From Escherichia coli (GTDB lineage: Bacteria > Pseudomonadota > Gammaproteobacteria > Enterobacterales > Enterobacteriaceae), in the NCBI RefSeq assembly GCF_003018235.1, contig NZ_CP027437.1: 64,000 nt of DNA, one strand, 5' to 3'. Below the pieces are notes generated by a model, which did not search any database, was not told where the DNA came from, and saw nothing but the letters and a program-made list of their open reading frames with translations. Positions 2,656 through 48,335 of this stretch are shown here, in pieces. Position 1 is the stretch's first letter. Each line of letters starts with the position of its first letter. The translations under genes and the position numbers were made by a program.

Positions 2656-3264
2656 TTAACGATGTATCAGAACAATCTTGCGCCGGGAGAATAGCGTTTC
2701 CGCAGACAGCTGGAATTTATATTCCGCGGCCTTCAGCTTTCGCGATTTAAGCATTTTCATCGTGATACCCCTTATTTTCCCTGACTCAACCTGTCTCTTG
2801 ATTTCGCCGGTGCTCAGCATGAGCTGCTTTTGCAAAATCGACAGCAGGCTGACCTGAAACGAACGGGAAATCCTGACGCTAACCTTGACCCATTTGCCGG
2901 GAGAAAGGCTGGCTAACCACTGCTCCTGAATGCGAAAATCAGGCCGACCCGATAGCTCTGCGTTGTTCCGCTTCAGCATCGCGATATCACAGGAAAAATG
3001 TTGAACCGTGGCTGCATCGTTGCTCATCAGCCGGTTATGAAGTTCGCGGTCAATTTTGCTGACGTGCAGGCGCGAAAATAGGGAGATATTCCAGGTGTAA
3101 TCACAGTGTGTGCATTTATAGATACTCCACACGTCCAGCACCTTCTTTTGCGAATTAATCCGAAATGCACCTGATGGCGTGAAGTCCCGTTTAATGTTGC
3201 ATGAAGGGCATCGCTTCGCAATGCGCTGATACCCCACGGGCGTGACGGTCCATGTAACTTTCAT
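2656..3264 (-). CDS. Hypothetical protein with N-terminal CxxC...CxxC zinc ribbon and basic C-terminal region (202 aa)
   Basis: Long ORF with two CxxC pairs (CPSC, CTHC) and a K/R-rich C-terminus; no confident family assignment. Confidence 0.5.
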   Translation of the reverse strand: MKVTWTVTPVGYQRIAKRCPSCNIKRDFTPSGAFRINSQKKVLDVWSIYKCTHCDYTWNISLFSRLHVSKIDRELHNRLMSNDAATVQHFSCDIAMLKRNNAELSGRPDFRIQEQWLASLSPGKWVKVSVRISRSFQVSLLSILQKQLMLSTGEIKRQVESGKIRGITMKMLKSRKLKAAEYKFQLSAETLFSRRKIVLIHR

Positions 3265-3559
3265 AACCTACCTTTTTTAACCCATACAAAACCGGATCCG
3301 TACTGAACGGACCATGGATGTTTATGTATGAAAAATATTTAAGAGATATTTTTCAGAGGGTTAAAAAAAGATTTCCAACTATGCAATCCTGTCGGTGAGC
3401 AAAGAGATATAGCGAGACTATCAAAACGGCAATTATTGGGTATATGAGTTCAATCAATATTCATGATGGTTATGGCTTGTTCTATTGATCTGACACATTA
3501 AACACGGCGCATTAATTTTGTATGTTTTATGAACAACCCAACAACAAAAGGAGCGCGAT

Positions 3560-4268: not shown

Positions 4269-4512
4269 GAACGATAAAGCGGGGGCCTCAGCGCCCCCAC
4301 CTGAAACTAAACCGATCCCGCAGATGTCAATGAGCGTTGAACGAGTTGATAAATGCCGAGATGTCTGACTGTTTTTACGCCAGAACTCCATGGTGTGACA
4401 ACCATACACATACTCCCTTCTTGACACCTTTAAACCATTTAACCGCATGCCTCTGTCTGCCCTGCAGGGACGGCTGATGCCTGTGTGTTGTCTGGCGGTA
4501 AGGAACAATACT

Positions 4513-43038: not shown

Positions 43039-45177
43039 ATGACACCGCATGTGATGAAACGAGACGGCTGCAAAGTGCCGTTTAAATCAGAGCGCATCAA
43101 AGAAGCGATTCTGCGTGCAGCTAAAGCAGCGGAAGTCGATGATGCCGATTATTGCGCCACTGTTGCTGCGGTTGTCAGCGAGCAGATGCAGGGCCGCAAC
43201 CAGGTGGATATCAATGAGATCCAGACCGCAGTTGAAAACCAGCTGATGTCGGGTCCATACAAACAACTGGCTCGTGCTTACATCGAGTACCGTCACGATC
43301 GCGACATTGAACGTGAAAAACGCGGTCGCCTGAACCAGGAGATCCGTGGTCTGGTCGAGCAGACCAACTCCTCGTTACTCAACGAAAACGCCAACAAAGA
43401 CAGCAAGGTGATTCCAACCCAGCGCGACCTGCTGGCCGGGATCGTGGCTAAACACTATGCACGCCAGCACCTGCTGCCGCGTGACGTGGTGCAGGCACAT
43501 GAACGTGGTGATATTCACTATCACGATCTCGATTACTCACCGTTCTTCCCGATGTTCAACTGCATGTTGATCGACCTGAAAGGCATGCTGACCCAGGGCT
43601 TTAAAATGGGGAACGCCGAGATTGAACCGCCGAAGTCGATCTCTACGGCAACCGCGGTAACTGCGCAGATTATTGCCCAGGTCGCCAGCCATATTTATGG
43701 CGGCACCACCATTAACCGTATCGATGAAGTGCTGGCACCGTTTGTCACCGCCAGCTACAACAAACATCGCAAGACCGCAGAAGAGTGGAACATCCCGGAC
43801 GCCGAAGGCTACGCTAACTCTCGTACCATCAAAGAGTGCTACGATGCCTTCCAGTCGCTGGAGTACGAAGTAAACACCCTGCATACCGCCAACGGTCAAA
43901 CGCCGTTTGTAACCTTTGGTTTTGGTCTGGGCACCAGCTGGGAGTCGCGCCTGATTCAGGAATCGATCCTGCGTAACCGTATCGCCGGCCTCGGTAAAAA
44001 CCGTAAAACGGCGGTGTTCCCGAAACTGGTGTTTGCGATTCGCGATGGCCTGAACCATAAAAAAGGCGATCCGAACTACGACATCAAACAGCTGGCGCTG
44101 GAGTGCGCAAGCAAGCGCATGTATCCGGATATCCTGAACTACGATCAGGTAGTGAAAGTCACCGGTTCGTTTAAAACCCCGATGGGCTGCCGCAGCTTCC
44201 TCGGCGTGTGGGAAAATGAAAACGGCGAGCAGATCCACGATGGTCGTAACAACCTCGGCGTGATCAGCCTGAACCTGCCGCGTATTGCGCTGGAAGCAAA
44301 AGGCGATGAAGCCACCTTCTGGAAGCTGCTGGATGAACGTCTGGTGCTGGCACGTAAGGCGCTGATGACCCGTATCGCCCGTCTGGAAGGCGTGAAGGCA
44401 CGCGTAGCTCCTATCCTCTATATGGAAGGTGCTTGTGGCGTGCGTCTGAATGCTGACGATGATGTTTCTGAAATCTTCAAAAACGGTCGTGCATCTATTT
44501 CGCTGGGTTACATCGGCATCCACGAAACCATTAACGCGCTGTTCGGCGGCGAGCATGTTTATGACAACGAGCAGCTTCGCGCGAAAGGTATCGCGATTGT
44601 TGAACGTCTGCGTCAGGCAGTGGATCAGTGGAAAGAAGAAACGGGTTATGGTTTCAGTCTCTACAGCACGCCGAGTGAAAACCTGTGCGACCGCTTCTGC
44701 CGTCTCGATACCGCTGAGTTTGGCGTGGTGCCGGGCGTGACCGATAAAGGTTACTACACCAACAGTTTCCACCTTGATGTGGAGAAAAAGGTGAACCCGT
44801 ATGACAAGATCGACTTTGAAGCGCCTTACCCGCCGCTGGCGAACGGTGGTTTCATTTGCTACGGCGAGTATCCAAACATTCAGCACAACCTGAAGGCGCT
44901 GGAAGATGTCTGGGATTACAGCTATCAGCATGTACCGTATTACGGCACCAATACGCCGATCGATGAGTGCTACGAGTGTGGCTTTACTGGCGAGTTCGAG
45001 TGCACCAGCAAAGGCTTCACTTGCCCGAAATGTGGTAACCATGACGCCTCCCGTGTGTCGGTAACTCGCCGCGTGTGCGGATATTTAGGTAGCCCGGATG
45101 CACGTCCATTTAACGCCGGTAAGCAGGAAGAAGTTAAGCGCCGCGTTAAACATTTGGGGAATGGGCAGATAGGTTAA
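43039..45177 (+). CDS. nrdD: Anaerobic ribonucleoside-triphosphate reductase
   Basis: 712-aa ORF with ATP-cone N-terminus and C-terminal glycyl-radical motif RVCGY. Confidence 0.95.
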   Translation: MTPHVMKRDGCKVPFKSERIKEAILRAAKAAEVDDADYCATVAAVVSEQMQGRNQVDINEIQTAVENQLMSGPYKQLARAYIEYRHDRDIEREKRGRLNQEIRGLVEQTNSSLLNENANKDSKVIPTQRDLLAGIVAKHYARQHLLPRDVVQAHERGDIHYHDLDYSPFFPMFNCMLIDLKGMLTQGFKMGNAEIEPPKSISTATAVTAQIIAQVASHIYGGTTINRIDEVLAPFVTASYNKHRKTAEEWNIPDAEGYANSRTIKECYDAFQSLEYEVNTLHTANGQTPFVTFGFGLGTSWESRLIQESILRNRIAGLGKNRKTAVFPKLVFAIRDGLNHKKGDPNYDIKQLALECASKRMYPDILNYDQVVKVTGSFKTPMGCRSFLGVWENENGEQIHDGRNNLGVISLNLPRIALEAKGDEATFWKLLDERLVLARKALMTRIARLEGVKARVAPILYMEGACGVRLNADDDVSEIFKNGRASISLGYIGIHETINALFGGEHVYDNEQLRAKGIAIVERLRQAVDQWKEETGYGFSLYSTPSENLCDRFCRLDTAEFGVVPGVTDKGYYTNSFHLDVEKKVNPYDKIDFEAPYPPLANGGFICYGEYPNIQHNLKALEDVWDYSYQHVPYYGTNTPIDECYECGFTGEFECTSKGFTCPKCGNHDASRVSVTRRVCGYLGSPDARPFNAGKQEEVKRRVKHLGNGQIG

Positions 45178-45184
45178 TCCTTCC

Positions 45185-45222
45185 CCCTCACCCTAACCCT
45201 CTCCCTCAAGGGAGAGGGTACC
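45185..45222. repeat. Second copy of the dispersed hairpin repeat (ccctcaccctaaccctctccctcaagggagagggtacc)
   Basis: Near-identical to the element at 20262-20298. Confidence 0.6.
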
Positions 45223-45361
45223 GTTCCGTGCCCCTTCCTGATTCCCGACATAATGAATTGCCTCTGGCCAGTTGGTGTCGTCGCAAGGTGGCAAATGCGT
45301 AGCATCGGGGGACTTCGCCCGTACGCACCAGAGCAGTCATGGCGTCAATTGAGAATCGAAA

Positions 45362-45826
45362 ATGAACTTTCATCAGTACTATCCTGTCGACATCGTCAAC
45401 GGCCCCGGCACTCGCTGCACCCTGTTTGTCTCCGGGTGTGTTCATGAATGCCCCGGTTGCTATAACAAAAGCACCTGGCGGGTAAATTCCGGTCAGCCAT
45501 TTACCAAAGCAATGGAAGACCAGATCATTAACGATCTAAATGACACTCGCATCAAACGCCAGGGGATTTCCCTCTCCGGCGGCGATCCGCTGCATCCGCA
45601 AAACGTGCCGGATATTCTGAAACTGGTACAACGAATCCGCGCCGAATGTCCGGGTAAAGACATTTGGGTGTGGACAGGCTATAAACTCGACGAACTCAAC
45701 GCTGCGCAAATGCAGGTTGTTGATTTGATTAACGTACTGGTCGACGGCAAATTTGTGCAGGATTTAAAAGACCCTTCCCTGATCTGGCGCGGCAGCAGCA
45801 ATCAGGTGGTGCATCATTTGCGTTAG
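45362..45826 (+). CDS. nrdG: Anaerobic ribonucleotide reductase activating protein (radical SAM)
   Basis: Translation MNFHQYYPVDIVNGPGTRCTLFVSGCVHECPGCYN. Confidence 0.93.
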   Translation: MNFHQYYPVDIVNGPGTRCTLFVSGCVHECPGCYNKSTWRVNSGQPFTKAMEDQIINDLNDTRIKRQGISLSGGDPLHPQNVPDILKLVQRIRAECPGKDIWVWTGYKLDELNAAQMQVVDLINVLVDGKFVQDLKDPSLIWRGSSNQVVHHLR

Positions 45827-46117
45827 TCACTCATCCAGCCGTTTAGTCGCGTCTTCATAAACGGCTGAGTTCTCTCTCTTACCAATAGCTATCACCAACA
45901 CGAGCAACTCTTTATCGTTAACCTGATAAACCAGGCGATATCCCTGTGTGCGCAGCTTAATTTTGTAGCAGTCCGGTAAATCCCGCAGTTTAGCCGATGG
46001 ATTGCGCGGCCTTTTCAGCACATCCTCAAGCTTTTTTTTAAATTGTTCCCGGACTGTCACGCCCAGTTTTTGCCACTCTTTCAGCGCCCGCGGATCAAAC
46101 GCCAGCTCATAGTTCAT
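45827..46117 (-). CDS. relE: RelE-family mRNA interferase toxin
   Basis: Translation MNYELAFDPRALKEWQKLG...DCYKIKLR..GYRLVYQV aligns by eye with E. coli RelE; stop codon directly abuts nrdG stop. Confidence 0.8.
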   Translation of the reverse strand: MNYELAFDPRALKEWQKLGVTVREQFKKKLEDVLKRPRNPSAKLRDLPDCYKIKLRTQGYRLVYQVNDKELLVLVIAIGKRENSAVYEDATKRLDE

Positions 46118-46349
46118 CCAGTCGGACCTTAATGGCCTCTTGTGGGTTGGCCAGTCGTTCCCTGACAGTGCGTAACAAGGCTTCTTCACTATCACTGACA
46201 GTGAGCGTTTTTACCGGCATTCGTCCATTTTCCGCAACGTACTGAAACAGCAGTCGCACTGCTTCAGTAGGCGTGATATTTAATTTTTCCAGCACCGCAT
46301 AAGCCTCATTTTTCAGTTTGTCATCCAGGCGGACGTTAAGTGTGGCCAT
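46107..46349 (-). CDS. relB: RelB-family antitoxin
   Basis: Translation MATLNVRLDDKLKNEAYAVLEKLNITPTEAVRLL... resembles RelB; overlaps the toxin start by 11 nt. Confidence 0.8.
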   Translation of the reverse strand: MATLNVRLDDKLKNEAYAVLEKLNITPTEAVRLLFQYVAENGRMPVKTLTVSDSEEALLRTVRERLANPQEAIKVRLDEL

Positions 46350-46540
46350 TATGCCTCCGGTAATTATGAAAAGTGTAATGCATTATAGCATTACATATGC
46401 ATTACATTCATTTCTGGAAAACGCCTCGCAAAAATGAGGACGACACGCAGGAATATGCCGTGGTGAAGATAGATATTGCGGTGATTTTACGAAGGGAGAA
46501 GAAAGCGTTGGGCGGTAACGTTTCACCGCCCAATAAGGAA

Positions 46541-46930
<390 letters not shown>

Positions 46931-46982
46931 TCACTTCCTTTTTTATTATGAAGATTTGGCGCGGCAGGTCGCGCCAGTTTTT

Positions 46983-48335
46983 TTACTGCCCGGCGATTTT
47001 CATCTCCGGCAACAGCACAGAACCACACTGTATATTACTGCGTGTTTCAATATCGTTACCGACGGTGACAATATTGCGCCACATATCTTTCAAATTACCT
47101 GCGATGGTGATTTCACTAACAGGATACTGAATTTCGCCATTCTCTACCCAGAAGCCCGCTGCACCACGGGAATAATCACCGGTAATGGCACTCACGCCCT
47201 GGCCCATCAGCTCCGTCACCACCAGCCCGGTGCCCATCTCTTTAAGCATTTGTTCGAAGCTTAGCCCTTGTCCGGCAATCCGCCAGTTGTGAATACCGCC
47301 CGCATGTCCGGTGCTTTTCAGCCCCAGTTTCCGCGCCGAGTAGCTGGTCAGCAGCCACTGAGTCAGGATGCCATCTTTGACGATATCGCGGCGCTCGGTG
47401 CGCACACCTTCGCTGTCGAATGGCGTCGACGCCAGCCCTTTCAGCAGATGCGGATGCTCTTCAATGGTCAGCCAGTCCGGCAGAATTTGTTTACCCAGCG
47501 AATCCAGCAGGAAGGTAGATTTACGGTAAACCGATCCACCCGCTATCGCCCCCACCAGATGGCCAAAAAGCCCGGTTGCCACTTCATTGGCAAAAATGAC
47601 CGGCGCTTTCATGGTGGAGAGTTTACGCGGTGACAGGCGCGATAAAGTACGGCGAGCACAGTCGGCCCCAACCCACTCTGGCGTTTGCAGATCGCTCATC
47701 GCACGACCAATGGTGTAGGCGTAATCACGCTCCATATCGCCATTTTCTTCAGCAATTACACAGCTGGAGAGCGAATGACGCGTAGAGCAGTAACCCTGCA
47801 ACATGCCGTGGCTGTTGCCAAAAACTTTGACACCGTAGTGGCTGTTAAAGCTGCCACCTTCGGTATTGGTGATGCGTTTGTCCGCCTGCAATGCTGCCTG
47901 TTCTGCGCGGGCCGCCAGTTCAATGGCTTCATCCGGGGAAACTTCCGCAGGGTGGAACAAGTCGAGATCCGGTGCGTCAAAGGCCAGCAGCTCTTTGTCT
48001 GCCACGCCGGCACAGGGATCTGGCGAGGTATAACGGGCAATATCCAGCGCCGCCTGTACGGTGCGGGCAATGGCCTGCGGGCTTAAATCGGTAGACGATG
48101 CGCTACCTTTACGGTTCTGGTGATAAACGGTGATCCCCAGCGCGCCATCGCTATTGAATTCAACATTCTCCACTTCACCATAACGCGTGCTTACGCTAAT
48201 GCCGGTGGTCTTGCTGACGGCAACTTCTGCACCGTCCGATTTGACTGAGGCCAACTCCAGCGCAGTGGAAACTGCTTCTTCCAGAATCTTGCGCTGCGCT
48301 TCAACTTGAGAGATTACTTTCATTGCAAGTGCCAT
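46983..48335 (-). CDS. pmbA: Metalloprotease PmbA (TldE)
   Basis: 450-aa [25 protein letters not shown]... Confidence 0.92.

Follow-up and report, generated by a model that had tools for sequence, protein, structure and literature searches.

Why do some Escherichia coli chromosomes carry a toxin–antitoxin (TA) pair between nrdG and cybC when K-12 has none there, and was the pair inserted in the former or lost from the latter? The question is raised by a stretch of 64,000 nucleotides of E. coli contig NZ_CP027437.1 (RefSeq assembly GCF_003018235.1), hereafter the window, in which genes for a RelB-like antitoxin and a RelE-like toxin lie on the minus strand between the two flanking genes (Table 1). 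A preliminary description of this DNA stated that the K-12 site is empty and offered two origins, an old insertion or a loss in the K-12 lineage. We conclude that the locus is very probably a chromosomal relBE-type type II TA operon, the Escherichia ortholog of Salmonella STM4449-STM4450 (named “relBE” or “relBE2ST” in that genus). The observations presented below support its vertical inheritance with nrdDG from a time before the divergence of Escherichia, Salmonella, Klebsiella, Citrobacter, Enterobacter, and Kosakonia.

Identity of the toxin and antitoxin

The sequence, the open reading frame list, and the family profiles together bear out the RelB/RelE-like pair that had been described on the minus strand. 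The antitoxin gene comes first in the operon and overlaps the toxin gene by 11 nucleotides (46107-46117), an overlap common to all nrdG-linked orthologs. In the mechanical listing the toxin frame reaches back to a GTG at 46195; the ATG at 46117 was taken as the relE start because the product then aligns with K-12 RelE from residue 1. Over residues 1-94 the two proteins are identical at 61 of 94 positions (65%) without a gap, and phmmer comparison with the solved K-12 RelE chains (4V7K, 4FXE, 2KC8, and 4V7J) gave E-values of 1e-34 to 2e-35, the best (2e-35) with 4V7K. Profile searches matched the toxin to Pfam ParE_toxin PF05016 at 6.6e-15, to TIGR02385 RelE_StbE with 29.9 bits (cut-off 27.9), and also to the ParE-like profile PF15781. 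The residues K52, K54, R61, R81, and Y87 (K-12 numbering), which we take to be those performing A-site mRNA cleavage, are unchanged in the window toxin (5/5) and, as read by eye from the sequences, are kept in every intact nrdG-linked ortholog. By its 65% identity to K-12 RelE and its kept active site, the toxin is predicted to be a ribosome-dependent A-site mRNA endonuclease.

The antitoxin matches Pfam RelB PF04221 at 6e-16 and, among the NCBIfam models, the RelB equivalog NF008412 at 2.5e-38 (130 bits, cut-off 96). It aligns end to end with K-12 RelB (4FXE chain A) at 1e-20, with ~47% identity over the full length, and scored 30.2 bits, below the cut-off of 60, against the RelB/ParD subfamily model NF050811. 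On its sequence we assign it as a RelB/DinJ-type ribbon-helix-helix protein with a putative C-terminal toxin-binding tail. Both sets of matches lie far beyond what chance produces, and neither relE nor relB is a spurious frame. A PADLOC search returned for the toxin a weak match (E = 0.0027) with a CARF-RelE fusion model, in its RelE domain, no match for the antitoxin, and no defence-system match for the pair.

A 19-nucleotide direct repeat, 89% identical, was also observed in relB, at 46114-46132 and 46321-46339. Its copies encode LNVRLDD in the N-terminal part of RelB and IKVRLDE in the C-terminal part, and Escherichia RelE likewise ends in …RLDE. A further (third) copy of the repeat core, TCATCCAG, mediates the 283-nucleotide toxin deletion described below.

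A conserved putative operator region

The sequence upstream of relB was compared among 12 orthologous loci from seven genera. The translation-start block GGAGGCATAATGGC is nearly invariant, and the pattern TGTAAT-N5-ATGTAATGCTA-N3-TGCATTAC, which belongs to a putative operator of three TGTAATGC units, is essentially invariant. In the −10 hexamer that follows TGC, TAnnnT is always kept. The region 5' of K-12 relB in MG1655, CTTGTAATGACATTTGTAATTACAAG, is made of TGTAAT/ATTACA units like those of the window operator. RelB probably binds the TGTAATGC repeats and thereby autoregulates the operon. A conserved TTGCGA/TTGAGA block was considered as a −35 element and rejected, lying 19 nucleotides upstream from the first TGTAAT unit.

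Evidence for vertical descent with nrdDG

One genome per bacterial species was scanned with the toxin protein, and the 80 best loci were examined by tblastn with the flanking proteins. In 11 of these 80 best species-representative loci, nrdG is convergent with relE and directly beside it: in E. coli E69, E. albertii, Citrobacter amalonaticus, three Enterobacter genomes, Enterobacter sp. Bisph1, a soil metagenome-assembled genome, Kosakonia pseudosacchari, Kosakonia sacchari, and Kosakonia cowanii. The order nrdD-nrdG then relE-relB was also found in Salmonella Infantis and Klebsiella pneumoniae records. On the relB side, the same PRD-domain (dgaR-like) regulator is present in Salmonella, Klebsiella, Enterobacter, Kosakonia, and, as a pseudogene, Citrobacter. 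The C. amalonaticus gene is broken over several frames and is probably a pseudogene (locus L006, 750-2690).

Several lines of evidence speak for vertical descent. Toxins linked to nrdG group into a single clade (10/10) that takes in no other sequence among 76 homologs, as do the linked antitoxins among 59, and their pairwise distances track those of NrdD and NrdG (Mantel P = 0.0002-0.002). Identity to the window among these orthologs is 80-91% for the antitoxin and 61-74% for the toxin. Between genera, synonymous sites are saturated and the ratio of nonsynonymous to synonymous divergence (dN/dS) is ~0.05-0.2 for relE and relB, which marks both genes as subject to purifying selection. The two main relE alleles of E. 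coli are separated by a synonymous divergence (dS) of 0.10, as compared with 0.094 for nrdG, with a dN/dS of 0.16 (0.016/0.103). Furthermore, a decayed copy occupies this site in E. albertii, where relE is 94.2% and nrdG 92.9% identical to the window.

No integrase, insertion sequence (IS) element, or target-site duplication was found at the window locus, and none of the matches in plasmid and phage collections was a true mobile copy of the nrdG-linked relBE lineage. The matches of >70% DNA identity in those collections are misfiled chromosomes, namely an E. coli record of 4.9 Mb, two K. pneumoniae records, and a 501-kb Salmonella Infantis contig, and therefore matches there alone do not show mobility. 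With the same site in seven genera, single clades, co-divergence, equal dS, and a conserved operator, we favor descent from a common ancestor followed by loss in most E. coli. The pair thus serves as an example of a nonmobile chromosomal TA pair, apparently vertical at one core-genome site, in at least seven enterobacterial genera.

As to the misfiled records themselves, CP125156.1, NZ_CP134663.1, and NZ_CP129856.1 are filed as plasmids, and AFYI01000007.1, a 501-kb Salmonella whole-genome shotgun contig, is filed under phages. The “plasmid” records of 4.9 and 5.37 Mb are whole chromosomes, and nrdDG is also present on a linear “plasmid” of K. pneumoniae of 550 kb.

Relation to known relBE loci

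The Salmonella locus has been catalogued and tested. It is the “RelBE” of Silva-Herzog et al. (2015; PMC4669091), SL1344 4379-4380 or LT2 4449-4450 (row 13 of their Table 3), which is absent from S. bongori. Induction of its relE in S. Typhimurium arrested or delayed growth, which was relieved by co-expression of relB, and raised ciprofloxacin tolerance (PMC4669091). The cloning and quantitative PCR primers of that study match the nrdG-adjacent Salmonella locus exactly. The same pair is relBE2ST (SL4379-SL4380) of Lobato-Marquez et al. (2015; PMC4366850), in whose assay RelE2ST was among the functional toxins, and STM4449-STM4450 was listed as a relBE homolog in a paper since retracted (De la Cruz et al. 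2013; PMC3868539). A Salmonella record cross-references the antitoxin to STM4449.

This pair is the positional ortholog of the window pair: tail to tail with nrdG, with the 11-nucleotide overlap and the same TGTAAT-N5-ATGTAATGCTA-N3-TGCATTAC operator, and with RelB 84% (67/80) and RelE 69% (65/94) identical to the window. The two differ in their relB-side neighbor, which is the PRD-domain regulator of the dga cluster in Salmonella and cybC in Escherichia, and at the junction with nrdG, where three nucleotides separate the stop codons in Salmonella as against none in the window, and Escherichia RelE is two residues longer (…RLDE). They differ also in how they are known, the Salmonella copy from experimental tests and the E. 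coli copy from sequence.

The relBE pair of K-12 itself (b1564-b1563, Qin prophage) is of the same family and architecture, with 65% identity in the toxin, ~47% in the antitoxin, and a TGTAAT/ATTACA operator. However, it is a paralog. It lies in a cryptic prophage, is followed by hokD, and has a one-nucleotide overlap, whereas the window pair holds a conserved core-genome position with an 11-nucleotide overlap and no mobile-element context.

RefSeq already names the products RelE-family toxin and RelB/DinJ antitoxin (“RelE/ParE family toxin” in some records), so with the Salmonella ortholog catalogued and tested the pair carries little weight as a discovery. Neither the locus of E. coli nor its synteny was described in the literature that we searched, which included two surveys of E. 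coli TA systems (PMC7167474, PMC10790755). What is added here is the synteny across seven genera with the accompanying co-divergence, the conservation of the operator, a survey of the forms of decay in E. coli, the origin of the orphan relB through repeats, and a candidate terminator embedded in relE.

Presence, absence, and decay in E. coli

The 523-nucleotide pair was used as a query against 5426 complete E. coli genomes. Some part of it is present in 454 genomes, at 456 places that are all chromosomal and none on plasmids; at least 80% of it is present in 389, and a toxin-internal segment in 393 (i.e., ~7% carry relE). In ~61 genomes relB occurs without relE. The flanks were found in 5425 of the 5426 genomes, and in most of these the alignment is split in two, bypassing the pair. 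Universal presence at this site, K-12 included, was therefore not seen, and the pair in E. coli is an old presence/absence polymorphism. Between the two origins first proposed, loss is favored by the shared position and the co-divergence with nrdDG; restricting that loss to the K-12 lineage does not hold, given that ~93% of complete E. coli genomes are without the toxin gene.

Besides the empty allele, at least four independent toxin knock-outs were observed in Escherichia. In O145 strains and others, ~61 genomes in all, exactly 283 nucleotides are missing between two copies of TCATCCAG, so that relB abuts nrdG; the orphan relB left by this deletion codes for a 79-residue RelB ending in …VRLDE. 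In E. albertii and in a strain labelled E. coli SCPM-O-B-9504, relE has a poly-A frameshift, and most of relB with the promoter is deleted. In E. coli E69, a two-nucleotide slip (AG slippage) in a AGAGAGAG run cuts RelE short before Y87. In E. coli O158:H23 CFIAFB20140388, an IS100 element (istA/istB) lies within relE while relB is intact (locus L086, 402-2702). One species thus presents a full decay series, from the intact pair through the frameshifted toxin, the IS-disrupted toxin, and the orphan antitoxin to the empty site. It offers a natural system for asking whether chromosomal TA pairs are selected or merely persist, as well as a marker polymorphism between E. coli lineages.

The record of strain SCPM-O-B-9504 (NZ_CP144930.1) diverges from the window as far as the E. 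albertii type strain NBRC 107761 does, with identities of 92.7% in nrdG, 94.2% in the relE remnant, and 89.7% in cybC. This calls its species label into question, unless the segment was imported.

The empty site and cybC

The statements about K-12 in the preliminary description were correct. In K-12, as in E. coli C, nrdG and cybC are 44 nucleotides apart with no pair between them. K-12 cybC is a pseudogene (b4236 in the MG1655 record) in which a 26-nucleotide deletion takes out the ATG and the ribosome-binding site, whereas window cybC is intact, matching NF011632 (2.5e-57) along the whole profile (positions 1-127 of 127). In E. coli C an intact cybC lies beside the empty site, and the loss of relBE and the truncation of cybC in K-12 are therefore independent.

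By alignment, the empty and occupied sites are related by replacement rather than by clean excision. The end of nrdG reads CGA TGA in empty sites and CGT TAG in the occupied site. The 44-nucleotide spacer of the empty site forms a strong hairpin of its own, TTCCCTGTT…AACAGGGAA (−19.6 kcal/mol), which has no relation to the cybC terminator hairpin found where the pair is present. The possibility that this spacer is a relic of relB was assessed by local alignment against shuffled sequences and was not supported by comparison with the full cassette (P = 0.27) or with the O145 form (P = 0.20).

On the other side of cybC, the cybC-pmbA spacer of the window (46928-46982) is without a segment of ~128 nucleotides that K-12, E. 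coli C, and O145 strains have (compare locus L001, 2377-2554). This segment is single-copy, is present in 3886 of the 5426 E. coli genomes independently of relBE, and had no match in Rfam.

Alternative explanations

Several observations weigh against reading the window locus as a functional operon of common descent. Support for toxicity and neutralization comes from published work on the Salmonella ortholog only, and would extend to the E. coli copy by analogy. The toxin evolves approximately twice as fast as the antitoxin; together with the repeated inactivation of the toxin in Escherichia, this means that selection on toxin activity may be weak and that the allele could be attenuated. A simple consensus sigma-70 scan of 45150-47000 found no promoter, because there is no good −35, and the promoter call therefore depends on the conserved TGnTAnnnT motif by itself. 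As for a trace of former occupancy in the empty site, comparison of the 44-nucleotide spacer with the E. albertii-type remnant (GTTCCCTG…ACAGGGAAATG) gave P = 0.03 in one of three tests, which is too weak to claim a relB relic. Finally, in the retracted paper, overexpression of STM4450 in E. coli BL21 slowed growth only slightly (PMC3868539).

The window pair might, on these grounds, be intact in sequence and nevertheless spent, i.e., an attenuated toxin with an active antitoxin that is heading for loss and has no role beyond persistence. The independent knock-outs by the 283-nucleotide deletion, the poly-A and AG frameshifts, and IS100 point that way, as do the loss of the whole pair in most strains and the faster divergence of the toxin, and the pattern resembles the decay of another chromosomal pair. 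The ccdO157 pair between folA and apaH of E. coli (Mine et al. 2009, Genetics; reference 34 of PMC7167474) reportedly decays at its chromosomal site. It too is a type II pair at a fixed intergenic site, present in some E. coli only and with a short spacer in its place in K-12, and its toxin has reportedly been inactivated repeatedly with the antitoxin retained; it differs in belonging to another family (CcdB is a gyrase poison), and the relBE-nrdG synteny spans at least seven genera. Set against this picture are the intact frames of both genes in ~390 genomes, the intact catalytic residues, a dN/dS well below 1 both between genera and within E. coli (0.016/0.103), and the toxicity of the Salmonella ortholog on induction (PMC4669091). 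We consider a spent pair unlikely, and we infer that the window relE allele is active.

Under another explanation, the pair would be an islet that entered the nrdG-cybC interval by horizontal transfer in the window strain's lineage, with K-12 retaining the ancestral empty site. Presence in only ~7% of E. coli genomes would fit such an origin, as would a slight dip in GC content (0.46-0.49 vs. 0.52-0.55 in the flanks), the frequency on conjugative plasmids of related RelE/RelB pairs with 60-70% DNA identity, and the replacement, without a clean deletion scar, that distinguishes empty from occupied sites. However, each of seven genera has its own diverged copy in the same position and orientation beside nrdG, toxin and antitoxin are each monophyletic and diverge in step with NrdD/NrdG, and dS equals that of nrdG within E. 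coli. The decayed copy of E. albertii at the same site, the lack of any integrase, IS, or target-site duplication, and the chromosomal location of all 456 E. coli places speak in the same sense. Insertion in this lineage is thus largely refuted, and we regard it as very improbable.

That the toxin is a ParE-type gyrase poison rather than a RelE-type mRNA endonuclease is scarcely credible: the pair shares with ParDE (RK2 parDE; O157:H7 paaR-paaA-parE) the RelE/ParE structural superfamily and a ribbon-helix-helix antitoxin, and its best Pfam match is named ParE_toxin, with PF15781 and some RefSeq names in agreement, but PF05016 spans the whole RelE/ParE superfamily, and the window pair differs from ParDE in its gap-free identity to a K-12 RelE solved on the ribosome (4V7K/4V7J), its five RelE catalytic residues, its RelB-equivalog partner, and a RelB/ParD model score below cut-off.

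A model for the operon

For the relBE-type operon that we favor, a mechanism can be modelled on the K-12 RelBE paradigm. The operon would be transcribed from the extended −10 promoter TGCTATAAT, which is set within the three TGTAATGC repeats. A RelB ribbon-helix-helix dimer, alone or with RelE, would bind these repeats and repress its own operon, and translation of relE may be coupled to that of relB through the 11-nucleotide overlap. The C-terminal tail of RelB is expected to wrap RelE and keep it off the ribosome. Upon depletion of RelB, free RelE would enter the ribosomal A site and cleave the mRNA codon by means of K52, K54, R61, R81, and Y87, and this cleavage would lead to the arrest of translation and growth.

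Features of the locus and the junction with nrdG

Table 1. Positions of genes, repeats, and predicted signals in the window
Feature	Position	Strand	Basis
nrdG, anaerobic ribonucleotide reductase activase	45362-45826	+	NF008335 equivalog, 6.6e-94; stop TAG 45824-45826
relE-type toxin gene, 96 amino acids	45827-46117	-	PF05016, TIGR02385; stop TGA (TCA on +) 45827-45829
Direct repeat TCATCCAG, copy 1, relE 3' end	45831-45838	+	alignment
Candidate intrinsic nrdDG terminator, 10-bp hairpin (45836-45845 with 45858-45867) and T-rich run	45836-45880	+	inverted repeat
relB-type antitoxin/autorepressor gene, 80 amino acids	46107-46349	-	PF04221, NF008412; autorepressor role by family
Direct repeat TCATCCAG, copy 2, relB 3' end/relE start	46114-46121	+	alignment, repeat analysis
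Shine-Dalgarno GGAGG, 5 nucleotides before relB ATG	46354-46358	-	sequence
Putative RelB operator, three TGTAATGC units	46374-46406	-	repeat analysis
TGTAATGC inverted unit	46374-46381	-	repeat analysis
Predicted extended −10 TGCTATAAT, enclosed by TGTAATGC units	46382-46390	-	conservation
TGTAATGC direct units	46399-46406, 46388-46395	-	repeat analysis
cybC terminator hairpin, 11 pairs and T-rich tail, between cybC and relBE promoter region	46508-46533	-	terminator scan
cybC, cytochrome b562 with signal peptide, 128 amino acids, intact; flanks relB in Escherichia	46541-46927	-	NF011632

The cybC terminator hairpin has a folding energy of −18 kcal/mol and a z-score of −4.4. At the other end of the pair, nrdG ends in CGT TAG, and TCA, the reverse complement of the relE stop, begins at the next base (45827), so that no nucleotide lies between the two stops, in agreement with the preliminary description. 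In other genera, 3-8 nucleotides separate the relE and nrdG stops; in Escherichia the stops touch and RelE is two residues longer. A terminator has no room between nrdG and relE, and the search for one was therefore made inside relE. On the nrdG-sense strand, a hairpin followed by the T-rich sequence AGTTCTCTCTCTT lies in relE codons 80-94, with a folding energy of −14.6 kcal/mol and a z-score of −3.4. It is antisense to the codons of the RelE catalytic C-terminus (K80-R81 … Y87 … K92-R93-L94), and the K-R-E-K codons, read as their reverse complement, give its T-rich tail. In 10 genus-level orthologs, eight core pairs are kept, two of them via compensatory changes, and the T-rich tail is retained. 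The observed covariation score was reached by 30 of 500 shuffles, and given these modest statistics the hairpin is offered only as a candidate nrdDG terminator. An Rfam search of the locus and its K-12 counterpart returned nothing relevant, with sub-threshold, REP-like naRNA4 matches only, in the K-12 nrdD-nrdG spacer.

One may speculate that this junction is functional and makes the pair an oxygen-coupled TA module, in which FNR-driven anaerobic transcription of nrdDG into relE would set the RelE:RelB ratio. The ratio could be set by antisense RNA or by transcriptional interference, and conversely relBE read-through could damp nrdG. We give this idea little credence; if true, it would explain the lasting linkage of nrdG and relBE across seven genera.

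Two further observations concern the surroundings of nrdG. In Enterobacter sp. Bisph1, relE has lost its stop and its frame continues antisense for 23 codons within the 3' end of nrdG, which makes the convergent genes overlap (locus L027, ~3001-3360). The nrdD-nrdG spacer of the window (45178-45361), which has a CCCTCTCCCTCAAGGGAGAGGG hairpin, is unlike that of K-12, and its part at 45300-45361 is matched only by close relatives of the window.

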